A stretch of 64,000 nt of DNA, taken from positions 641 to 64,640 of the forward strand of contig JANPCG010000015.1 of NCBI GenBank assembly GCA_031430855.1, written 5' to 3'. The stretch is from Candidatus Kaiserbacteria bacterium. GTDB lineage: Bacteria; Patescibacteriota; Minisyncoccia; Phycocordibacterales; UBA918. The stretch's first letter is position 1; each line of letters begins with the position of its first letter. Positions 2,437 to 43,687 of the stretch are shown here, one piece after another. The notes beneath the pieces are model-generated. The model was given only the letters and a program-made list of their open reading frames with translations, did no database searches and was not told the origin of the DNA. The position numbers and the translations under genes are program-made.

Positions 2437-4236
2437 CTACAGCTGAGTGCCCTCTAGTTCACGCCTCGCGTTTTTTATCTGGAGGATTTGTGACGGGTCA
2501 GAGGTGATAATCTGATCCTCGGTATAGGACGCAATGACTTTAATTGCCACGTGTTTTAACCCTACAAAGAATAATCCTTCCCCCACATCGGATTCGAGCA
2601 ATAAGAATTTTTCTTCATCCGTAAGGTTGAAGGTACGTTGAATGTTATCAATCGCGGTTGGTGATTGTTTCATGAGAAATTGAAGAGAAGAGTTGGTAAT
2701 CATTGGTACGCCATAGGGGGAACGAAGAAAGTCATCCACATCTTGGGTAATGGTCGCAATCCCTAAAAAGTACTTCCGTCCTCGTTTAGCGAGACTGAAT
2801 AAAAACGATGCGGTATCTTCTGATTTCATCATCCACCACGCCTCATCAATCACCAGGAGTCGTTTAACGAGACGGCGCCTGATGGCAGACCAAATATAAT
2901 TAGTCACAATAAACATCCCAATAGTTTTGAGTTCATCTTCCATATCGCGCAGTGAAAACACCACAAATTTTTGATTTATATCAACGTTTGTTGGGTGGTT
3001 CATAAACCCAGACCAGGTTCCCGAGGTATATTTCTGTAGCCGACTGATGAGTGACCCACTCCCATTCATACCTGCCAACACCATTTCAAAATCGGATAAC
3101 AAAGGCGGCTCGAGCTCGCTAAAATTACTTTGTTCGGTAATGTCTTTTAGTGCGTAGGTCTCGCGAATTGCTTGATCGACGATCGTTTCCTCTTCGGGAC
3201 TGAGTCCGCCTAACATCAGTCGGAACAACCCAATGAGGTGCACGATTTGTGAGCGAAGGATGTCAGCCGGCTCCTCGTCTTCCCCAGGGGCTGGTAAATC
3301 AAACGGGTTAATGTGGTGTTTTGACGAAAGCGAAATATTAAAGAAACGTCCACCGGTTGCTTCAGCTAGGTATTCATATTCGCGCTCAGGGTCGATCACT
3401 ATCACTTCTGTTCCAAACATTAGGGACCGTAGAATTTCCAACTTAATACTGTATGACTTACCGGCACCAGAGGTCGCAAAGGTAACCGAGTTGTAGTTCG
3501 TGAGACCAAATCGATCAAATAGTACCAAAGATGAGTTGTGGCGGTTAATGCCGTAGAGGATTCCGGTGTCTGAGGTGAGGTCAAATGAGGTAAAGGGAAA
3601 AAAGCTCGAAAGGGGTGAAGAATTAAATTTACTATGGACCATTAATTCATCAGTACCGGTTGGAAAAATACTTCGTACCCCTTGTTCTTGCTGAAACAAA
3701 GCCGGTTTAATATAAATTAACTTAGAGTCAAGTGAACCTTTGATGTCATTTTCGACCTTATTCAAGGCTGTTTCGGTGTCACCATAGACGGCAATATAAA
3801 GCCCTACATCAAATAACTTTTCCTCAGCCTGTTGAAGTTTGTCACGCAGCTCTTCGAGATTGCGGTAGGCTGCTTCGAGCTGCGGGTCACGCACTTCCCC
3901 ACGATTGGCACGGATGTTAATTTGACTCTGTACCTCGGCTACTTTTTTTTGGAATTTTTTTAGGGTTTCTGCCGTACTGATAGGGTGAATTACAATCGTG
4001 ACATCAAGTTCCTTCTCGAGGTTAAGAATTGGTTCAAGCCACCCATCATTTAAATAGCGCGGGTAGGACACTGCGTAGAACACACGAGCTTGCGTTCCGC
4101 TAATGTTAATACTCCGGGGATTGATATTAATTGCTGACGGTGCAATCACATCAGTCAAGGTCAAGAGACTTTCACTAATCGCGTCCTGGCTCGGAGTTGT
4201 TTTAGGTTTAGGTTTTAAGTTGTCGAATAATCCCAT
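2437..4236 (-). CDS. VirB4/TraC/PrgJ-family type IV secretion / conjugation ATPase (C-terminal ATPase portion or complete short form)
   Basis: Walker A FATSGAGKSYS, Walker B VIDEAWWMM (DEAW) and a downstream ITQD motif. The N-terminus has a YPRYL-type motif seen in Gram-positive VirB4 proteins. Confidence 0.8.
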   Translation of the reverse strand: MGLFDNLKPKPKTTPSQDAISESLLTLTDVIAPSAININPRSINISGTQARVFYAVSYPRYLNDGWLEPILNLEKELDVTIVIHPISTAETLKKFQKKVAEVQSQINIRANRGEVRDPQLEAAYRNLEELRDKLQQAEEKLFDVGLYIAVYGDTETALNKVENDIKGSLDSKLIYIKPALFQQEQGVRSIFPTGTDELMVHSKFNSSPLSSFFPFTSFDLTSDTGILYGINRHNSSLVLFDRFGLTNYNSVTFATSGAGKSYSIKLEILRSLMFGTEVIVIDPEREYEYLAEATGGRFFNISLSSKHHINPFDLPAPGEDEEPADILRSQIVHLIGLFRLMLGGLSPEEETIVDQAIRETYALKDITEQSNFSELEPPLLSDFEMVLAGMNGSGSLISRLQKYTSGTWSGFMNHPTNVDINQKFVVFSLRDMEDELKTIGMFIVTNYIWSAIRRRLVKRLLVIDEAWWMMKSEDTASFLFSLAKRGRKYFLGIATITQDVDDFLRSPYGVPMITNSSLQFLMKQSPTAIDNIQRTFNLTDEEKFLLLESDVGEGLFFVGLKHVAIKVIASYTEDQIITSDPSQILQIKNARRELEGTQL

Positions 4237-4242
4237 GTTGTT

Positions 4243-4872
4243 CTATTGTATCGTAGGTGCGCTCCCGGTGATATCACCCGGATTGTATATGTGGTAAAAG
4301 AGTTCAACTAATTCATCGGTCTGGAGTGCAATCGTGCGGACTCCGATTCGGTTGAGTCCCTGTTCAACAATTGCTTGGCGTTGCTCGAGCTGGAGGCGCT
4401 GCTCTTCGATGGTCATATCATTTTGGATACTCATGCGGCCTTGAGAAATGATACTCCCAAAGCTTTTCGTGAGGTTTACCTTGGCGGCTGTGTAGGGAAC
4501 CACAACAAAAAAGTTTTTACTCATCACATCCACATCAGCCACAAAAGAGCGAATAAACTCAATGTATTCACGCAGCTGGATTCGCATTAAGTCGTTATCT
4601 TGATCGACGTTTCGCTCGTTAAGCATCGCTAAATACGGCTCAATATTAAGACGTCTTGATTGGACGTAAATCTGCAGTGAGAAATCAAGCGTGTTGAGGA
4701 AGTTTTGAAACTGAAACAGAATGGCTCGTTGTTCATCTTGAGATTTGAGCGCAAAGTTAACCGAAGAAGCTAAAAGAATCTTGCACAACTGACCACTTTT
4801 CAGTATGACAATATCATCGCGAATATCACGAATGGCAACAAATTCTTGGGTGGCTGCATTAGGGGTTGGCAT
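4243..4872 (-). CDS. VirB4 N-terminal-domain-like ORF. It is in frame with the downstream ATPase and separated only by TAG plus two codons.
   Basis: 209 aa, hydrophilic. The architecture (IRDIRDDIVILKSGQL...) resembles VirB4 N-domains. The stop TAG at 4243-4245 is in frame with the ATG at 4236. Confidence 0.45.
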   Translation of the reverse strand: MPTPNAATQEFVAIRDIRDDIVILKSGQLCKILLASSVNFALKSQDEQRAILFQFQNFLNTLDFSLQIYVQSRRLNIEPYLAMLNERNVDQDNDLMRIQLREYIEFIRSFVADVDVMSKNFFVVVPYTAAKVNLTKSFGSIISQGRMSIQNDMTIEEQRLQLEQRQAIVEQGLNRIGVRTIALQTDELVELFYHIYNPGDITGSAPTIQ

Positions 4873-4875
4873 AGA

Positions 4876-5307
4876 TTATTTTTTTTGAAGAGCTTGCAAT
4901 TCGAGACGCCTGGCGAGCGAGGTGATATCTTTTTTTGGACTACTCGCGGCGGGTATATAGCCAGGATTACGAATGGTTGTCGTGGGTAAGAAGCTTTGCT
5001 TGTGAATTATTTCTCGTTGTTGCTGCCAGAGATAGAGACGGTGTCGCCTAAAGTAATTATAAATAGCTTCTATAAAGTACGAAAAAGGTCGATTGTTGAT
5101 AGGGTAAAAAGAGAGCGCTCCCGCGAGAATTCCAAGTGGCAATCCAATGAGTATAAACACAATAAACGGAGCGGTGAGAAACAGTACGACCGCCATTCCG
5201 GCTCCCCCACCGAGATAGAGAAATTGCCGCCAAGTAAACGGGCCAAAAATTTTATCTTCAATTTCGATGAACTGCGGCACTTCAAATTGCATACCCGTAT
5301 TATACAC
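4876..5307 (-). CDS. PrgI/VirB3-like small membrane protein of conjugation systems
   Basis: 143 aa with two N-terminal TM helices (FTWRQFLYLGGGAGMAVVLFLTAPFIVFILIGLPLGIL). Sits directly upstream of VirB4, as in Gram-positive T4SS loci. Confidence 0.5.
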   Translation of the reverse strand: MYNTGMQFEVPQFIEIEDKIFGPFTWRQFLYLGGGAGMAVVLFLTAPFIVFILIGLPLGILAGALSFYPINNRPFSYFIEAIYNYFRRHRLYLWQQQREIIHKQSFLPTTTIRNPGYIPAASSPKKDITSLARRLELQALQKK

Positions 5308-5356
5308 GCACGAGGCAGTGTGACGAGAGCACTATCCCAAAATGTATTTCAGTTTA

Positions 5357-6037
5357 TTAGGCGCCCCAGCGTGGTGTTTCAATTGATGTCGCAGGCGGTG
5401 TCGTTGGTTTGGCGTCAGGGGTAGAGGTGTATGCCGGCAGGTCAGAGAGTGGGGTGCGCACTGGCGGTTGCTCCGAGGTATAGACCGGTGTTTCAACGTC
5501 AGCGATTGGTTCATAACTGGTTCGCTCTGGTGACCGCGCCATATCACTCGCCATAGTACGGATTTCAGGCATATGCGGTACTTCTTCAGTCGGAATGGGT
5601 GTAGCGCCGGTGACGGGAATACTCACGCTTGATGGTGGAATATAGAAGGTTGCACTAGAATGAGTGCTGGGGGCAGGTATAGGTGTAGACACTATGGTTT
5701 CTTCGGTTTCCGCATCTTCCTCTTCTGGTACAACAAAAGTTGGGTCAGAGAGTGGCGCCAAGAACTCGAGCACATCTGCCCCTAGTAATCCCGCGGTCGT
5801 CGCGTCTAGCCCAAGCTCTTGTTGGAGGAGTGGGACGGTGTCTTCAGTTCGGTAGAAGCCGAGGATGATGTCCCCCAGAGTTAATATTAAATCTACGTAT
5901 ATTTTTTCAAGGTGGTATTTTGTACTCATCATGATGCTAAGCTCAACAAGTCTTTTGTTGTAAAAGAACTGAATTTTTTCTGAAGACTGTTCGAGCACCT
6001 GTAGTCTTGAGTTGTGAGTTGTGTAGTTATGGTCCAT
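5357..6037 (-). CDS. Hypothetical protein with a Pro/Thr-rich C-terminal tail
   Basis: 226 aa ORF. Low-complexity PT-rich end. Overlaps the upstream gene by 11 nt. Confidence 0.4.
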   Translation of the reverse strand: MDHNYTTHNSRLQVLEQSSEKIQFFYNKRLVELSIMMSTKYHLEKIYVDLILTLGDIILGFYRTEDTVPLLQQELGLDATTAGLLGADVLEFLAPLSDPTFVVPEEEDAETEETIVSTPIPAPSTHSSATFYIPPSSVSIPVTGATPIPTEEVPHMPEIRTMASDMARSPERTSYEPIADVETPVYTSEQPPVRTPLSDLPAYTSTPDAKPTTPPATSIETPRWGA

Positions 6038-8327
6038 ATTTCTTTTTTCCTTCTTCGCTTCTGAAGTACGCTAATACACCTGGCTGAATTCCCCACCGAG
6101 CTGCATTAAATTCAAACACCTGACGAAGTTGAAATCGCTGCGCTTGATCAAGCGTCCCTTCTTTTGCGATTTCTTCAAGTATACCAGAGGATATTTTTGG
6201 ATATGCGGAAGAGTATGAAGCGTCGAGGAAAACCTCTTTCGGTAGTTGGATAAATTCCTTAGGCTTTTTGGCAAGCTCTGTAAGTATTGCGTCCGCACCA
6301 CCTCCAGGACTCTGAATAAGATCCAATATACGAGATTTCTTGTTTTGTTTAATTGAGTCATTAAGTTCAGGGGTGGTTTTCTTAGAATTCTTTGTCCAGT
6401 CATCCAACTGAGTAGCTGATAGTAAATGGCTGTTGGTGGATACCCATTCAACCCCAAGTGTGTCGAGCTCGTCTCGTGTGAGCTTTGAGGTTTTGCTTGG
6501 TGAAGGGGTTGCAATGCCTCCAATTTTATTACCAACGGCAGTTTTTCTTGCGCCAGCAATACCACCCTTTTCACTGGAAGAGATCTTTTCGCTGTCCATT
6601 AGTTTTGAGGTTTGATCAGTAGTAAAGGAAGAAGCGTATTTTGCTCGTGTTTTAGAATCAAGATCTTCGATATCACTTTTTGAAAGACCTGTAATGTATT
6701 GTTTGGCTTTAGCCTCTTCTCCCTCCAGTGATACGAGTTTACTTCTATCGTCTGCTGACATACCAGCGTATGTTGCTGGATTAGCGGCAAGAGAACGGAG
6801 ACGTTCCAATTCAGGTCGATTTTTATCGGTATCTTTGACTGCAGCCCGGCCTTTCTTGGTGTCCTTAATTCCCTGCATTCTTGAACGGTTTTTTGTTACG
6901 TCAGCCTTTTCTGATTCGATTTCACTACGTGTTTTAGCTAGACCGGTTCCGCCGGCGCCGTACTCGTAACCAGACTTAAGTCCGTTACGTAAAGATCGAG
7001 TTCCCGGCAAATTTGACATGCCAGTTCGGTCCATTATGTTCAGACCAAGCTTTGATGCTCTTCCGCCTGTGTTTCTGTAGAGAACACCTTGGGTATTTTT
7101 ACGCAACGTATTTCCCATCGAAATTGCCGTTGAGGCACCAACTGCTCCCATACTACGCGCAACAGACAGTGACATAACCAAGAACACCATTGCCATAATA
7201 AAGAACGGCAAAACAGCCAGCGCACTCTGACTGGTCGCCGGGTCGGGAGAAAACATCGCGGCGTAACTTTGTGCCCCTGGGCGAGTACTGTAGGCGTAAA
7301 GGACGCGGAACGAAAGGTACAACATCAGTAAATAGGCAGGAGCAAAAAATGCTTGTTTAAGAAATCCAGTCCAAAACTTACTCGAAGTCCCGGAGAAGGC
7401 AGGAAACACCCACCCGAGGAACATAACCGGTGAAAACACCATATAGACATTAAGCGCAATAAATCGAATGATAAGTAAGATACCCCCTGCAGCAAACACA
7501 AAAGTGGCAGTTGCAAGGAATATCATTAAACCGAATATATACGCTAATGCCCCACCATTCCCAAATGCCGTTATCTGGCCTTGAGAAATCTCGAGGGTTG
7601 TCTCAAGGTTAAGAATGTTTATGAAGGCATTTGCAATGTCACCGCGCGCTTCACCAAAACCGTCAGCGATTACCGATGATGCCACGTGGGAGAGATCAAT
7701 GATAAATTTGGTAATAAAAAGACTAAAATTTACCAAGAGGGCCGCTCCGATTAAAGACACGAGCATGCTGCGTGCGCGTGAGTCACTCGAATCAAGAATC
7801 ATCTTAAAGCCTATGTATACTAACCCAAAGATAAAGGTGAGGTTAAAGAGGTCTCGAATGATTCGCCACACTTCTTCTACTGCAAAGCCAATCCCGTCAT
7901 TGTAGTAGCGGTCACCAAACCCGAGAAGGAAAGAATTAATACCAAATGTCATCAAATATCCAGCAAAGGAAAAGAGTGTTGTAAACACTGAGTAGACGAA
8001 TTCATAGAGCCATTGGTAGAGTGGGTTGGCAAACTGAACGGTTGGTACTTCAGTGGTTTGGGTCTGAGTTTCTTCGGGTGCAGCCGCGCCCCCGCCAGTA
8101 GTGCCGCCGCCATAGGTGCCAGTTACGGGGTCATATGTTGGAGCAAAGCCGGGTCGGTTAAATTGATCAGAATAGAAACCGCGATCAATAGGGTCTGTCA
8201 CTACCGGCGGTCTCGGACCAAGGTCTCCGGCGTAAGCAGTTTGACTTATAAGAAGAAATCCAAACAGTAACAAACTACCGATCAGTATCGCTATAAAGCT
8301 CTGCATTTTTGTTACCTGTCTAATCAT
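6027..8327 (-). CDS. Large polytopic membrane protein, putative VirB6/TrbL-like T4SS channel component with a hydrophilic Lys-rich C-terminal domain
   Basis: 766 aa. Signal/TM at the N-terminus, a Gly-rich linker, at least six predicted TM helices, then about 350 aa of hydrophilic tail. Position in the cluster fits. Confidence 0.4.
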   Translation of the reverse strand: MIRQVTKMQSFIAILIGSLLLFGFLLISQTAYAGDLGPRPPVVTDPIDRGFYSDQFNRPGFAPTYDPVTGTYGGGTTGGGAAAPEETQTQTTEVPTVQFANPLYQWLYEFVYSVFTTLFSFAGYLMTFGINSFLLGFGDRYYNDGIGFAVEEVWRIIRDLFNLTFIFGLVYIGFKMILDSSDSRARSMLVSLIGAALLVNFSLFITKFIIDLSHVASSVIADGFGEARGDIANAFINILNLETTLEISQGQITAFGNGGALAYIFGLMIFLATATFVFAAGGILLIIRFIALNVYMVFSPVMFLGWVFPAFSGTSSKFWTGFLKQAFFAPAYLLMLYLSFRVLYAYSTRPGAQSYAAMFSPDPATSQSALAVLPFFIMAMVFLVMSLSVARSMGAVGASTAISMGNTLRKNTQGVLYRNTGGRASKLGLNIMDRTGMSNLPGTRSLRNGLKSGYEYGAGGTGLAKTRSEIESEKADVTKNRSRMQGIKDTKKGRAAVKDTDKNRPELERLRSLAANPATYAGMSADDRSKLVSLEGEEAKAKQYITGLSKSDIEDLDSKTRAKYASSFTTDQTSKLMDSEKISSSEKGGIAGARKTAVGNKIGGIATPSPSKTSKLTRDELDTLGVEWVSTNSHLLSATQLDDWTKNSKKTTPELNDSIKQNKKSRILDLIQSPGGGADAILTELAKKPKEFIQLPKEVFLDASYSSAYPKISSGILEEIAKEGTLDQAQRFQLRQVFEFNAARWGIQPGVLAYFRSEEGKKKYGP

Positions 8328-31170: not shown

Positions 31171-31242
31171 GCACCCGTGGTGAAGTGGATATCATTACTG
31201 ACTTCGGATCAGTCGTCGGGGGTTCGAGTCCCTCCGGGTGCA
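31171..31242 (+). tRNA. tRNA-Arg(TCG), no encoded CCA
   Basis: Manual cloverleaf: acceptor GCACCCG/CGGGTGC; anticodon stem ACTGA/TCAGT with loop CTTCGGA; T-arm GGGGG-TTCGAGT-CCCTC. Confidence 0.85.
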
Positions 31243-31291
31243 CAAATTGGCCGACCCTAATGCGCAAGCATTGGGGTCGTTGCCATTTGTC

Positions 31292-31412
31292 GCGACCGGA
31301 GGGACTCGAAAAGACGCAGCGGGGCCCCTCTGGGCCGCGGCGTCTGGGGTCGAGCGAATGAGGTAATTTATGAACGAAGTGAAATAAATTACCCATGAGA
31401 GTGACCGAGTCC
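31292..31412 (+). repeat. Structured repeat element Y (family 1). It begins with an inverted copy of the tRNA-Arg T-arm/acceptor, then a GC-clamp hairpin, then a hairpin with loop GAACGAAGTGAA, and ends ...CATGAGAGTGACCGAGTCC.
   Basis: Paralogous to 31547..31617 and, in reverse orientation, to 43409..43533. The stems differ but remain complementary. Confidence 0.6.
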
Positions 31413-31451
31413 TTTTGAAAAGCGTTACGCGACTCGAAACCCGATTGAGTT

Positions 31452-31524
31452 GGATTAGGAGCGAAGCGAACTAATCCAACCAATTGGGATACTGAACCTG
31501 TAAGGTTCGAGTCCCCTGTCCCAG
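31452..31524 (+). repeat. Structured repeat element A (family 2): hairpin with loop GAGCGAAGCGAA, then CCAATTGGGATACTGAACCTGTAAGGTTCGAGTCCCCT
   Basis: Paralogous to 32859..32929. The 5-bp stem GAACC/GGTTC co-varies with GAACT/AGTTT in the other copy. Confidence 0.55.
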
Positions 31525-31546
31525 GAGAGGTGTGTTTAATGCTACT

Positions 31547-31617
31547 TCTGGGGTCGAGCGAATGAGCTTTATTGCAAACGAAGTGTAGCAATAAAGCCAT
31601 GAGAGAGACCGAGTCCC
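31547..31617 (+). repeat. Structured repeat element (family 1, partial copy lacking the GC clamp): TCTGGGGTCGAGCGAATGAG-hairpin(loop AAACGAAGTGTA)-CCATGAGAGAGACCGAGTCC
   Basis: Flanks identical to element Y. The stem sequence is entirely different but complementary, which is compensatory change. Confidence 0.6.
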
Positions 31618-31772
31618 TCCAAAAGCATTTCTACACTCAAAAGGTTGCCAGCTATTTTAAAAATTACGATTCAATTCATCTTAATTTCCACCACCTTCCT
31701 TCTTTTAGTTGACTCCCCCTTTATTTTTGCTACTCTTTTGCCATATCTTGTTCCAATCAAGAGGTTTACGTA

Positions 31773-31927
31773 TGGCAAGTGCTAATGGCAGCGGTAGGCT
31801 CACTCCCGCACAGCTCGCCCGTGAAGACAAAAAGCGCTTGCAGAAGGCAAAACGTCTCGCTCGCAAAAAGGCAGTGGCTGAATCTGCAAAGGTTGTCCCC
31901 CGCTCGGGCGCGCGCACCCTCTATTGA
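31773..31927 (+). CDS. Small basic protein (51 aa), possibly bS21-like; good RBS (AAGAGG)
   Basis: MASANGSGRLTPAQLAREDKKRLQKAKRLARKKAVAESAKVVPRSGARTLY. Lys/Arg-rich with a C-terminal ...LY, as in S21-type proteins. Confidence 0.4.
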
Positions 31928-32028
31928 TGTCGCGAAATGAACATCTAACCGCCCGGATAATATCCGGGCGTTCTGTTTATTACCATAAAATGAACACTGG
32001 TCTTAGTATATAATATACACACTTTGTT

Positions 32029-32709
32029 ATGCCAAAAGTTGCTCACTATAAAGAGGAAGCCTATCAACAAGCCCTCTCCTTTCGACGTCGCGGTTTTACC
32101 TATCGTGAAATAGCGAAGATTTGCAACGTTTCTGTGAGTACATTAAGTAATTGGTTAGCGCACGAACCGTTCTCTACTGAGGTTGCTAAAGATAATATAC
32201 GCAAAGCAACGAATGAAAACACCAAACGTCTCGTGCTAATAAACAAGGCTCGTATCTCAGAGCGTAAACTTCAATACAGTGAAGTGGTCCGTCAGGCTGT
32301 TGTTGAGTATCAGAATTATCATACCAATCCCCTGTTTATTGCGGGGATAATGGTTTATGCGAGTCAGGGAGATGTACATAATGAGAAAGTGATTCGTCTT
32401 TCAAACAGTCGAACTGACCAGCATCGTATCTTTATACGCTTCCTAACAACGTATTTAGGGGTTGAGAAGGCAAAAATTAGGATATGGCTGCTGCTTTATC
32501 CAGATCACGATGAAATTGCGTGTATGAAGCATTGGTGCAAGAAAACAGGCATATCAGTCGCCCAGTTTTATAAAAACCAAGTAATTACAAGTCGTAGCCA
32601 CAAACCAACATTGCATTTTGGGGTCGGTAATACTATAATCGGCAGTACTCTTTTGAAGAAGAAGCTTAAGAAGTGGATGGAGCTAATGTCAAAAGAGCTT
32701 GAGAAATAA
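32029..32709 (+). CDS. HTH-domain protein of unknown function (N-terminal resolvase- or transposase-like HTH; no recognisable catalytic domain)
   Basis: GFTYREIAKICNVSVSTLSNWL helix-turn-helix. 226 aa. Lies between two tRNA genes and is surrounded by repeat elements. Confidence 0.5.
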   Translation: MPKVAHYKEEAYQQALSFRRRGFTYREIAKICNVSVSTLSNWLAHEPFSTEVAKDNIRKATNENTKRLVLINKARISERKLQYSEVVRQAVVEYQNYHTNPLFIAGIMVYASQGDVHNEKVIRLSNSRTDQHRIFIRFLTTYLGVEKAKIRIWLLLYPDHDEIACMKHWCKKTGISVAQFYKNQVITSRSHKPTLHFGVGNTIIGSTLLKKKLKKWMELMSKELEK

Positions 32710-32714
32710 AAGCT

Positions 32715-32785
32715 GCGGCCATGGTTAAGTGGTATAATGAGTCCTTGCCAAGGATTAGTCGGGGTTTCGATTACCCCTGGCCGCA
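32715..32785 (+). tRNA. tRNA-Gly(GCC), no encoded CCA
   Basis: Acceptor GCGGCCA/TGGCCGC; anticodon stem AGTCC/GGATT with loop TTGCCAA; T-arm GGGGT-TTCGATT-ACCCC. Confidence 0.85.
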
Positions 32786-32792
32786 CAAATCT

Positions 32793-32825
32793 AAAAAGAC
32801 CCGAGCTTCTGCTCGGGTCTTTTTA
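32793..32825 (+). terminator. Rho-independent terminator immediately after tRNA-Gly
   Basis: AAAAAGACCCGAGC-ttct-GCTCGGGTCTTTTT. Confidence 0.75.
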
Positions 32826-32858
32826 GATTTTGCTTGGGTAATCGAAAGACCAATAGAG

Positions 32859-32929
32859 CCAGATTTGAAGCGAAGCGCACCAATCTGGCCAATTGGGTTA
32901 CTGAACTCGTAGAGTTTCGACTACCCCTT
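32859..32929 (+). repeat. Structured repeat element B (family 2). It is preceded at 32835-32848 by an inverted copy of the tRNA-Gly T-loop (GGGTAATCGAAA).
   Basis: CCAGATT-tgaagcgaagcgcac-CAATCTGG, then CCAATTGGGTTACTGAACTCGTAGAGTTTCGACTACCCCT. Paralog of element A. Confidence 0.55.
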
Positions 32930-33402
32930 AAGTTAGTAGCAGGTTGCGTGGCAATCGAAAGAACTTGTCTGCTATTTTTTAAGTAAAAACGAGAAAGTTG
33001 CGACAAGGTGTGCTGCTCCAGTAAGTAGTCGATTACCTATGTCTGGTTTGCAACTAAAAGTAAGTAAATGAACTACTGACCGTCAGTTTCAATCACTACA
33101 AACATTACCCTACGTTCTCTGTCCTCTAAAATTACGAAATATAAAAGCACTCGCACCTGTGCACAACTTGTCTAACATGTGTATAAAGGACAGTCGTAAA
33201 AGACACATATCTTTGAATAGTACGGCCCGATATATAGCTTTCGGGATTAATTCTGTGTATAATTATAAAATTTTGTGTACCACGTGAAACGTGTTACGTA
33301 CACCTGTAATTATAGCCTTATATAAAAAAGTTACACATGAAACCAACGTATTCTAAAAAAAATTATCAAAAAGGCTGAATCTGGCTGCTATACTAGTTCC
33401 AT

Positions 33403-33816
33403 ATGGAACAAAAAGAGAAGTTAAAACTTAAAACTAAAGAAACTGGGAATAAAGGAGAGTTAATTTGTGCCCGGTACCTTAAAAGTGAGGGATTTACTCT
33501 AATTGCAATGAATTATCAAAAAAAGTGGGGTGAAATTGATGTTATTGTGCAAAAAGCCAATAAAATTCACTTTGTTGAAGTAAAAACAGTTTCATATGAA
33601 ACGAAGGACGATCTTGATTATGCAGTTGCACATGGAACGTGGCGGCCAGAAGATAATGTTCATCAAAATAAATTAATTAAACTATCTCGAGTAATTCAGA
33701 CCTGGATTATCGAACACAAGTGGTCTGGCGACTTTCAAATTGACGTTGCGGCGATAAGAATTGTACCACGTGAAACGTATGCACGTATTAATATCATTGA
33801 AAATATTATTCTGTAA
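33403..33816 (+). CDS. yraN: YraN-family (UPF0102) endonuclease-like protein
   Basis: GELICARYLKSEGFTLIAMNYQKKWGEIDVI core. The start codon sits inside a GTTCCATATGGAAC palindrome. Confidence 0.7.
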   Translation: MEQKEKLKLKTKETGNKGELICARYLKSEGFTLIAMNYQKKWGEIDVIVQKANKIHFVEVKTVSYETKDDLDYAVAHGTWRPEDNVHQNKLIKLSRVIQTWIIEHKWSGDFQIDVAAIRIVPRETYARINIIENIIL

Positions 33817-33877
33817 TGATTTCACGTGAAATGGTTTCATATGGAACTTTAAATTTTATTACTTATACAATCCAAAC

Positions 33878-34266: not shown

Positions 34267-34286
34267 ATTGATTTAGAAAACAATAA

Positions 34287-34320
34287 GAAAATCACTAGTT
34301 TCATATGAAACTAGTGATTT
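34287..34320. terminator. Perfect 34-nt palindrome AAAATCACTAGTTTCATATGAAACTAGTGATTTT. Bidirectional terminator between the pseudogene and tRNA-Pro; carries the GTTTCATATGAAAC motif.
   Basis: Seen directly. U-tracts on both sides. Confidence 0.6.
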
Positions 34321-34328
34321 TCTTATTG

Positions 34329-34399
34329 TCGGGGAGCAGGGAATCGAACCCTGACCATCCGGTCCCAAACCGGATACACTACCACTATGCTACACCCCG
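34329..34399 (-). tRNA. tRNA-Pro(TGG), no encoded CCA; C1-G72 as in bacterial tRNA-Pro; one T-T mismatch in the acceptor stem
   Basis: T-arm CAGGG-TTCGATT-CCCTG; anticodon stem TCCGG/CCGGA with loop TTTGGGA. Confidence 0.8.
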
Positions 34400-34429: not shown

Positions 34430-34491
34430 ACATAATTCTGTATTACAGAAAATCAAAGTTCACTTTTATTTTCTGTAATACAGAATTATGT
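34430..34491. repeat. Perfect 24-bp inverted repeat with a 14-nt spacer, between divergent tRNA-Pro and the NUDIX gene
   Basis: ACATAATTCTGTATTACAGAAAAT-caaagttcactttt-ATTTTCTGTAATACAGAATTATGT. Confidence 0.8.
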
Positions 34492-43408: not shown

Positions 43409-43533
43409 TGGTGAGAAGAATCGGTCACGAGTTACTGACTATAATTGTTCACTTCGTTCCAATTCTAGTAAGTACTCTCGACCCCAACGCGCCGGCCCAG
43501 AGGGGTCCCGGCTTGCGTCCTTCGATTCTTCAC
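43409..43533 (-). repeat. Family-1 structured repeat element X, in reverse orientation relative to the tRNA-Arg copy. Includes partial copies of the tRNA-Trp 3' end.
   Basis: Its reverse complement aligns to 31292..31412. Shared blocks are GACGCA-GC-GGG-CCCCTCTGGGCCG, TGGGGTCGAG and the GAACGAAGTGAA loop. GGTGAGAAGAATCG is shared with tRNA-Trp. Confidence 0.6.
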
Positions 43534-43616
43534 GAAATATGCTCCCAGCATATTTCTTCACTCCGCACAGCAGCAACAGAAAAACCGTCCCTAAGGACGG
43601 CTTTTCATGTTGGCTG

Positions 43617-43687
43617 TGCGGGTGAGAAGAATCGAACTCCCGACTACTGCTTGGAAGGCAGTCGTTTTACCACTAAACCACACCCGC
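43617..43687 (-). tRNA. tRNA-Trp(CCA), no encoded CCA
   Basis: Acceptor GCGGGTG/CACCCGC; anticodon stem CTGCC/GGCAG with loop TTCCAAG; T-arm GGGAG-TTCGATT-CTTCT. Confidence 0.85.

Follow-up and report, generated by a model that had tools for sequence, protein, structure and literature searches.

What are elements A and B, two similar hairpin-forming sequences in a 64-kb stretch of cellular DNA from a Candidatus Kaiserbacteria bacterium (JANPCG010000015.1; this whole stretch is called the window below, and positions are relative to it)? In the original prediction, made on the window, they were taken for a paralogous structured family with two hairpins, a compensatory pair change and a conserved loop. 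The A and B sequences it quoted are present where it placed them and the repeat is real: A and B form a 67-nt direct repeat (D2), 75% identical, and share an 18-mer (CCAATTGGGWTACTGAAC) that occurs exactly twice in the 64 kb compared with 0.05 expected occurrences. We found that they belong to a family of structured modules restricted to the ultra-small Patescibacteria, which occupies a fixed position in tRNA trailers, is bracketed by one antisense and one sense copy of the 3' end of its tRNA, is modular with a second family of the window, duplicates in tandem and decays. Neither the tRNA linkage nor the antisense and sense copies that flank the element had been noticed in the original prediction. 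The A/B kind is referred to as the Y-type module and the second kind, previously "family 1", as the X-type module; S1 denotes the tRNA's own segment T54-N73, S2 its sense copy downstream and S' the antisense strand.

A covarying three-way junction in Patescibacteria

Copies of the Y module were collected by a pattern scan of GTDB, with one genome per species, and by a scan of metagenome contigs using the pattern without its loop; together these gave 143 anchors. The GTDB scan returned 16 loci, of which 3 were chance matches inside genes and 13 true copies, all in metagenome-assembled genomes (MAGs) of Patescibacteria (Parcubacteria, Kaiserbacteria, Paceibacteria and Saccharibacteria). At least 120 loci came from the metagenome contigs. 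More than 140 further copies, among the matches listed, were found only in Patescibacteria genomes and metagenomes. Absence of copies elsewhere had been named as the sign of a chance local duplication, and the outcome was the reverse.

The module is ~95 nt long and the whole unit 140-250 nt, without an open reading frame (ORF). It folds as a three-way junction of a closing helix P1 (S' with S2), a long hairpin P2-P3 and a hairpin P4. P2-P3 is the first hairpin of the original prediction, extended; it has P2 strands CCCGAUUG/CAAUUGGG, a bulged A and a GA...GAA apex. P4 reads GAANNN-GUA-NNNUUC, its UUC being U54-U55-C56 of S2. The consensus of 49 distinct copies, aligned without gaps (core alignment), is (S' ...GGAnUCGAA) G CCCGAUUG A G (P3, 9 bp) GA-(mini-hairpin)-GAA in the 5' half and (P3') C CAAUUGGG GUACU GAA NNN GUA NNN UUC GAnUCC... 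in the 3' half. The junction GUACU, the bulged A and, within P4, the GAA:UUC pairs and the GUA triloop are invariant; in this subfamily the same holds for P2, including its G.U pair.

Covariation supports the fold. Pairing in P1/P2/P3/P4 holds in 93.9% of cells of the core alignment, against 79.6% in shuffles, and reaches 97-99.7% of cells in P3/P4. Double-sided changes were counted at 18 pairs in 273 cells, a level reached by 0/500 shuffles, and pairing drops to 27-50% when partner columns are shifted by 1-3. In an extended alignment that includes variant subfamilies, and is biased towards the model because it was fitted to the covariance model R1 built from the core alignment, 30 of 35 pairs vary on both sides (0/500 shuffles). 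Weaker copies in the fetched loci have P2 strands that are unrelated yet complementary (e.g. AGGUUGCC.../...GACAACCU) and keep GUACUGAA-NNN-GUA-NNN-UUC unchanged. The P2 G.U is present in 49/49 copies and variants have U.G, which favours the tRNA-sense strand as the folding strand.

These data bear out a structured family with compensatory change, as both hairpins keep their pairing, and they redraw its outline. The core of the proposed element stood; its limits did not, since P2 and the closing P1 had been missed and the true elements span 31427-31520 (A) and 32836-32929 (B). Likewise, the pairing of the second hairpin was right, and a 6-bp stem with a GUA triloop, found in 107/120 copies, fits better than the stem and loop originally drawn. 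The CGAAG(C/T)G loop, thought to be conserved and to define a binding partner, did not survive: it varies family-wide (GAGCGAAGCGAA, GAGCUUGCGAA, GAGGAACGAA, inserted hairpins), only the GA...GAA frame being kept, and the loop GCGAAGCG alone has 4 matches in the window versus 1.5 expected, which is not significant. A modular architecture common to family 1 was confirmed by R1, which in the window finds exactly A and B as full matches and gives partial matches on three family-1 hairpins, at model positions 19-57, where the P3 module with the bulged A and GA...GAA apex lies. "Paralogous" is a loose description of A and B: their family membership holds, and the copies are old and diverged.

Sense and antisense copies of the tRNA 3' end

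The general order is tRNA (ending in S1), trailer/terminator hairpin, S', three-way junction and S2. A tRNA gene on the same strand lies 74-362 nt upstream of the anchor in 104 of the 143 cases and represents 14 tRNA identities. Of the remaining anchors, most are at a contig end or are preceded by another module or by a tRNA-like 3' end that is degenerate. The S1-S'-S2 bracket is strongly non-random: regardless of module type, an antisense copy with two mismatches or fewer is found downstream of 95/157 tRNAs versus 3/146 in an upstream control, and a sense copy downstream of 93/157 tRNAs versus 4/133 in the control.

In 82 well-anchored loci, S2 was compared with tRNA T54-N73. It is 20/20 identical in 47 loci and 19/20 in 15 more. 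Mismatch per site is 0.03 at positions 1-12, 0.13 at positions 13-20, 0.1-0.2 at position 21 and ~0.6 beyond, and the jump after position 21 indicates that the S2 copy ends one base past the discriminator (N73+1). S' pairs with positions 4-11 of S. It is a true complement, with the anti-T-loop included and A opposite U where the tRNA has G.U, which rules out the tRNA 5' half as its origin. It often runs on into the complement of the tRNA's trailer, making S1, trailer, hairpin and S' one long palindrome. At 29 sites where S1 and S2 are discordant, S' follows S1 at 19 and S2 at 6. Further upstream, 36 of the 82 loci have an anti-acceptor segment set off by a 22-31 nt hairpin, which occupies the place of the D and anticodon arms; the segment is missing in 46/82.

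The minimum free energy (MFE) fold of the read-through RNA, reaching from the tRNA start to the S2 end, was predicted for 61 loci with intact S2. In 59 of these the tRNA 5' acceptor strand pairs with S2 and S1 with S', an arrangement that constrained folds prefer by 1-20 kcal/mol. At the B locus of the window, where the acceptor part of S2 is lost, the predicted fold consists of the native tRNA, the terminator and the P1-closed junction.

tRNA loci of the window, module exchange and decay

Four tRNA genes are present in the window (ARAGORN, Rfam), and three of the four carry a module appendage. Both A and B are on the same strand as, and 3' of, their tRNA gene (Arg-TCG and Gly-GCC, respectively). 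The tRNA-Arg locus is an array with the following features.

31171-31242 (+), tRNA-Arg(TCG); ARAGORN, Rfam tRNA 60.5 bits
31223-31242 (+), S1 of tRNA-Arg, T54-N73, TTCGAGTCCCTCCGGGTGCA, the segment copied and complemented downstream
31243-31310 (+), Arg trailer hairpin, then the outer antisense strand; inverted repeat and fold
31313-31412 (+), X-type module, copy 1; direct repeat D1, R1 match at 31358-31396 (model positions 19-57)
31427-31520 (+), element A, Y-type; R1 100.5 bits, E = 2.7e-27, sequence, S1/S2 comparison
31427-31438 (+), S' antisense strand of A
31440-31447 with 31481-31488 (+), P2 of A
31448 (+), bulged A
31449-31458 with 31471-31480 (+), P3 of A, apex at 31459-31470
31489-31493 (+), junction AUACU of A
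31494-31499 with 31503-31508 (+), P4 of A, GUA loop at 31500-31502
31506-31515 (+), S2 of A, equal to tRNA-Arg from T54, TTCGAGTCCC, diverged beyond
31547-31620 (+), X-type module, copy 2; D1, partial R1 match at 31562-31600, fold

Judged by its sequence, element A is a well-preserved core. Its 5' strand, GACTCGAA, is antisense to the tRNA-Arg 3' segment, and its S2 agrees with tRNA-Arg through T54-C63 only, the acceptor part being lost. By folding, A is nested between the two X modules and inside an outer helix (31298-31308 : 31610-31620). The outer antisense strand GACCGGAGGGACTCGAA (31294-31310) is the complement of tRNA-Arg from T54 and of the copy at 31610-31620, and belongs to the inverted repeat I5 (arms 31223-31251 / 31282-31310, complementarity 79%). 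X copy 1 consists, in order, of a G+C hairpin (31313-31344), GGGGTCGAG, a P3-like hairpin and GACCGAGTCC; X copy 2 terminates in CGAGTCCCTCC (31610-31620), which equals tRNA-Arg positions 56-66. The folding z-score against shuffles is -11.3 for 31244-31640.

Element B follows tRNA-Gly(GCC).

32715-32785 (+), tRNA-Gly(GCC); ARAGORN, Rfam; S1 at 32766-32785, TTCGATTACCCCTGGCCGCA
32787-32830 (+), perfect 20-bp palindrome with T and A runs between tRNA-Gly and B; I10, folds
32836-32929 (+), element B, degenerate Y-type; R1 71.3 bits, E = 1.2e-18
32836-32846 (+), S' of B, GGGTAATCGAA, perfect complement of TTCGATTACCC in tRNA-Gly
32849-32856 with 32890-32897 (+), P2 of B, two mismatches
32858-32867 with 32880-32889 (+), P3 of B, apex at 32868-32879
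32898-32902 (+), junction UUACU of B
32903-32908 with 32912-32917 (+), P4 of B, GUA loop at 32909-32911
32915-32928 (+), S2 of B, TTTCGACTACCCCT, 13/14 identical to the tRNA (one substitution)
32937-32980 (+), terminator-like hairpin TAGCAG...CTGCTA + T6, closing the B unit; sequence, folds

B is a degenerate copy, as indicated by the P2 mismatches, the UUACU junction, the S2 substitution and the lost acceptor part; its 3' end is TTTCGAcTACCCCT versus TTTCGATTACCCCT in tRNA-Gly. The palindrome ahead of it looks like a bidirectional terminator in the predicted folds. The folding z-score against shuffles is -7.1 for 32787-32985. A second antisense-like segment, GGCAATCGAAAGA at 32951-32963, lies in the loop of the post-B terminator hairpin; it is a near-match to B's S' (GGTAATCGAAAGA) and may be a remnant of a further unit.

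The third appendage, on the other strand, is of the X type.

43410-43687 (-), tRNA-Gly(TCC) locus with the third family-1 copy, tRNA at 43617-43687; sequence, R1 partial match

Its order is tRNA, terminator hairpin, antisense TGCGGAGTGAAGAA-hairpin-GTGAAGAATCGAA, G+C hairpin, X module and sense copy CGATTCTTCTCACC, the antisense copy having 1 mismatch and the sense copy 3; the X-type module is placed at 43410-43533 (-). The fourth tRNA, tRNA-Pro, has only a palindrome behind it and no antisense/sense bracket; tRNAs without any unit occur, tRNA-Pro being an example both here and in L039 (L numbers designate individual loci). Near-perfect palindromes flank tRNA-Pro at 34280-34329 and 34430-34491 (26-nt arms 100% and 30-nt arms 97% complementary).

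X modules share the antisense/sense bracket and recur in loci of the candidate phyla radiation (CPR), namely L039, L044, L048, L053 and L110. After a G+C hairpin containing CCCCTCTGGG come GGGGTCGAG, a P3-like hairpin and GUGACCGA, to which the tRNA copy from C56 is joined. X and Y modules replace each other at orthologous tRNA genes: for Gly-TCC the module is X in the window and L039 and Y, within a conserved scaffold, in L046; for Gly-GCC it is Y (element B) in the window and X in L039. Some loci hold perfect tandem arrays, ordered tRNA-(unit)-S-(unit)-S-(X unit)-S and repeating every 138-179 nt; in young duplicates the repeat takes in the trailer. At the other extreme are decayed copies (L044, the second unit of L121, A and B of the window), and in L049 a Y unit lies in the T loop of a partial tRNA-Lys duplicate. 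The 38 viral matches to the family-1 pattern were rejected as chance matches inside G+C-rich genes.

Further structures were seen in the fetched loci. A conserved 15-16-nt loop, (A)GUGAACG(A/U)AGUGA(A/G)C, joins a tRNA or tRNA-like 3' end straight to an anti-acceptor strand at positions 1690-1715 of L053 and upstream of Y units in L094, L058, L114 and L143; the apex of the X module, GAACGAAGUGAA, has this motif too. L056 contains four Y or variant units within 4 kb (2651-6639) and no detectable tRNA gene, three of the units being preceded by a repeated TTGTC(G/C/T)AACC...GGCGCAC segment in the role of S1. In L042, L050 and L052 the Y unit is succeeded by yet another type of module (GAGACGGAGUC...), whose own antisense strand matches the S2 trailer, which indicates that the arrays hold more than two module families.

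A protein partner, proposed as something that gene neighbourhoods would reveal, did not emerge: when the neighbouring ORFs within 3 kb were clustered, no family was enriched, the top families occurring at no more than 8 of 137 loci; a 220-aa HTH (helix-turn-helix) protein among them is explained by synteny with tRNA-Gly. Large serine recombinase-like ORFs were found within 3 kb of a Y unit at 7/137 loci (L099, L127, L130, L135, L136, L139 and L154), where some of the ORFs, as called, run into the unit and may have been drawn too long. RAYT/TnpA was not seen within 3 kb of the 143 copies. In the window, a 226-aa protein with an N-terminal helix-turn-helix (HTH) and no other recognisable domain is encoded at 32029-32709 (+) and has no PDB or NCBIfam match. 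It was rejected as the element's partner, as it is syntenic with tRNA-Gly rather than with the element: its homologues lie directly upstream of a same-strand tRNA-Gly (GCC or TCC) in 5 of 7 other Patescibacteria loci.

By protein annotation, the genes of the window include a CCA-adding enzyme, a ClpB-like ATPase, CorA and UPF0102. Between the Arg array and the HTH gene lies a basic 54-aa ORF (MASANGSGRLTPAQLAREDKKRLQKAKRLARKK, 31763-31927, +) that matches no family, followed by a terminator-like hairpin at 31950-31970. Palindromic boxes resembling GTTTCATATGAAAC and an exact 17-nt repeat (TGTACCACGTGAAACGT) occur in and around the UPF0102 gene region (33276-33292, 33395-33422, 33588-33615, 33762-33778, 33834-33861 and 34297-34324); from their sequence they may be operators or protein-binding sites. 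A LOOT RNA (RF03000, 82 bits) at 7604-7734 (-) of L135 is unrelated to the element.

Known kinds of element and candidate explanations

Neither A nor B matched any Rfam 15 model at gathering score or at E <= 10 (riboswitch, ribozyme, intron, Y RNA, tmRNA and small RNA (sRNA) models); a Leu_leader match on the terminator palindrome was spurious. On the canonical tandem copy L110 Rfam reported tRNA only, and in 18 further loci it reported no known family matching the element. A full-text literature search found no description of the element or of its architecture. A tRNA, tmRNA or permuted tRNA was rejected: ARAGORN and Rfam call true tRNAs only, A and B have no tRNA match at E <= 10, the tRNA-like TTCGANT of the element is base-paired, and the ARAGORN "tmRNA" in L081 is a tRNA-Ser plus a unit. 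By manual comparison the hammerhead core CUGANGA...GAAA is absent, and a k-turn was rejected because the apex, with its tandem G.A pairs, lacks a 3-nt bulge. A group I intron is opposed by the lack of an Rfam intron match at E <= 10, a variable base before S2 and a complete upstream tRNA. True T-loop introns were also rejected; among the 25 copies without an upstream tRNA, which follow other modules or degenerate 3' ends, no Y unit lies inside an otherwise complete tRNA. A miniature inverted-repeat transposable element (MITE) or other DNA transposon does not fit, as the S'/S2 ends change with each tRNA and the left end, the trailer hairpin, is unconserved. What is duplicated is a 21-nt segment, taken each time from the same part of the tRNA, unlike a short target-site duplication of fixed length.

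Partial likenesses exist. tRNA-targeting integrative elements (prophages, ICEs, genomic islands) often have a repeat that extends from the T loop to the 3' end, and, as here, an intact tRNA is accompanied by a displaced partial copy, a replacement 3' end and tandem accretion (PMC9897764; bioRxiv 10.1101/2020.11.02.365908). The direct repeat by which such elements are recognised is found here, S2 being T54-N73(+1). However, those elements are kilobases long and carry an integrase, whereas the present units are 140-250 nt, non-coding, and have an antisense copy of the repeat, a covarying three-way junction and matched S/S' at 14 tRNA identities. Known bacterial tRNA introns are group I ribozymes in the anticodon loop, at position 35/36 in Patescibacteria (PMC13011429). 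As with tRNA and rRNA introns, a structured insert sits in a stable-RNA gene, in the same phylum, and the predicted fold pairs the exons (1-53 and S2) around it; unlike them, the unit is at 53/54, has no Rfam match and brings its own copy of the 3' exon, so that splicing is not required. REP, REPIN and MITE-like repeats resemble the family in being multi-copy, intergenic, hairpin-forming near terminators, clustered and prone to decay, but they are species-level, have constant ends and depend on RAYT or transposase, whereas this family is phylum-wide with a target-matched bracket.

Among small RNAs from trailers or with tRNA-like parts (3' external transcribed spacer (ETS) RNAs, mascRNA, YrlA, the tmRNA domain), the trailer location and an acceptor/T-arm closing helix are shared, and by analogy the closing helix could be readable by tRNA-end-processing enzymes. 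The T-loop nucleotides are paired here, however, without an elbow, there is no Y RNA, tmRNA or mascRNA match, and the neighbouring tRNA is copied exactly; for a tRNA 3' ETS RNA in particular the location fits and a terminator-like hairpin intervenes. Like integron attC and CTX attP sites, the element would act through a folded single strand, with covarying helices, drifting sequence and a duplex that mimics the target, although no integron integrase or Xer context is present here and the target would be a tRNA gene. As regards a possible riboswitch, a junction and competing helices are present, and the location, 3' of a tRNA and not in a 5' untranslated region (UTR), is atypical. The element fails at least one defining feature of every testable known kind, and we rate the family and its architecture as new.

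With less than even confidence, we tentatively prefer to see in the unit a non-coding element of the intervening or insertion type, residing in tRNA genes and acting in the form of a folded single strand. This reading is ranked first because of the S1/S2 signature of T-loop tRNA integrators and because the predicted fold presents the unit as a 53/54 insertion. The folding strand would most simply be RNA of the tRNA-sense strand, and the unit would be located, in evolutionary terms, between gene positions 53 and 54. Its 5' end would bring a replacement T54-N73 and a terminator hairpin, so that the upstream gene would yield an intact tRNA without splicing, and the original tRNA 3' end would be pushed downstream to become S2. 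S' could clamp either S copy; in read-through RNA it is predicted to clamp S1, S2 then closing the acceptor stem, and the unit would thereby form an insertion in the T loop that is self-contained. The part recognised or catalytic in insertion, excision, processing or duplication would be the invariant junction nucleotides. Recombination between S copies could multiply units locally into tandem arrays, and X and Y modules would be exchanged at the same site. A narrower proposal, that the element is the core of an RNA-guided selfish element specific for the tRNA T loop, or a small ribozyme, with S' guiding it to U54-N73 and action at 53/54, seems unlikely to us; in that case the spare 3' exon would save the host tRNA, which would mature through 3' processing of S1 or through removal of the unit and use of S2.

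A number of observations weigh against an insertion-type element. At 137 loci, the units show no consistent linkage to an integrase, transposase or reverse transcriptase. A phage origin was rejected, since the window has no blastn match in phage genomes and no Y copy was found in the viral contigs scanned. Each tRNA has its own specific S', a strand that no simple transposon could bring along, and a mechanism that we cannot name would be needed to retarget the unit to 14 tRNA identities. A tyrosine-integrase att site would have a core-type inverted repeat around the T loop of S2, and none exists here: immediately 5' of S2 stand three bases of the variable 3' strand of P4, which lack complementarity to the 3' strand of the T stem. 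Copies in the same genome are old, with unrelated, individually compensated P3 stems (A versus B; L040 versus L052), and between the orthologous copies L050 and L052 the differences are compensatory; such change in place points to a fold kept by purifying selection, as would be more typical for a host function. The predicted folds come from nearest-neighbour calculations that ignore co-transcriptional kinetics, tRNA tertiary structure and processing. Departures from pairing in P3/P4 are not enriched in G.U (7, versus 24 others), so that they do not favour RNA over single-stranded DNA. Finally, a terminator-like hairpin usually stands between tRNA and unit, so that transcription of the unit is putative, a point that also counts against any host RNA made by read-through.

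Such a host-encoded trailer RNA, which would be co-transcribed with the tRNA, is the strongest rival, held with somewhat less confidence. As a switch, its S' would pair either with the real tRNA 3' half, blocking maturation, or with the decoy S2, the junction or X module acting as sensor or clamp; as a released small RNA, its P1 would mimic an acceptor/T minihelix and RNase P, RNase Z and the CCA-adding enzyme would set free a tRNA-like product. Strict co-orientation with the tRNA at a fixed distance, compensatory evolution at orthologous loci, and covariation in every helix combined with invariant unpaired junction nucleotides, as in aptamers and protein-binding RNAs, all suit it. So do the tracking of S1 by S' at most discordant sites, the departures being partly wobble-compatible, the two mutually exclusive global folds that are both predicted to be stable, an S2 end exactly at N73+1 as in a tRNA 3' end, the hairpin in place of the D and anticodon arms in 36/82 loci and the terminator-like hairpins after S2. 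Yet the unit is dispensable and variable, as tRNAs without a unit, X/Y swaps, identical tandem duplicates and persisting degenerate copies attest; the anti-acceptor strand is missing in 46/82 loci, the tRNA is transcribed ahead of the supposed sensor, pairing of the T-loop nucleotides in P1 leaves no elbow at the RNase P/RNase Z measuring distance, and 14 tRNA identities make mimicry of the aminoacylation type unlikely.

The S1/S2 repeats and tandem arrays are also what integration of a small S-carrying circle would produce, and the unit could then be a folded single-stranded DNA site at which a host recombinase integrates and excises such circles, comparable to XerCD-CTX attP or IntI-attC. 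Hairpins would form on the lagging-strand template or on imported DNA, with the S':S duplex mimicking the tRNA gene from T loop to 3' end. The hairpin tips are G-N-A triloops (GAA in GCGAAGC, GTA in P4), which are exceptionally stable in DNA, G.U is not enriched over mismatches in P3/P4, and GUGAACGWAGUGAAC also caps an acceptor-3'-strand:S' helix that competes with the tRNA fold in RNA and not in DNA. We nevertheless consider such a site distinctly unlikely: orientation tracks the tRNA and not replication, with units on both strands of the window where GC skew has one sign, no recombinase is linked, and a foreign S would give a chimeric tRNA, so that spread to new tRNAs would be hard to explain. 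Even less weight goes to a new small ribozyme that would cleave or splice itself at N53/U54, releasing unit-length, possibly circular RNAs or joining position 53 to S2. Its size of ~95 nt, a three-way junction in which ~16 unpaired or junction nucleotides are invariant, beside a defined U54 boundary, tandem repeats of 138-179 nt reminiscent of rolling-circle-type multimers and an equilibrium fold predicted to show the unit as a T-loop insertion would accord with that, but there is no likeness to Rfam ribozymes or introns even at E <= 10 (hammerhead, twister, twister-sister, pistol, hatchet, HDV-like), the would-be 3' splice site has no conserved nucleotide (the NNN of P4 varies), and splicing would be needless because S1 already completes the tRNA. 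Chance duplication, or decayed tRNA pseudogenes that have no independent structure, might have been suspected from the window, with its two copies, both with tRNA-like T-loop sequence and one degenerate; we regard it as excluded by more than 140 copies in several Patescibacteria classes, by covariation in all helices, by S' being antisense rather than a tRNA 5' half and by the silence of ARAGORN and the Rfam tRNA model on the elements.

If the element is what the data suggest, many tRNA genes of one of the largest bacterial radiations bear an undescribed structured appendage, which could be a new ribozyme, an RNA switch or a non-coding mobile element. tRNA maturation in organisms with minimal RNA-processing machinery would then become directly testable. 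Displaced 3' copies and tandem units can also mislead tRNA gene calling and island detection in CPR genomes.

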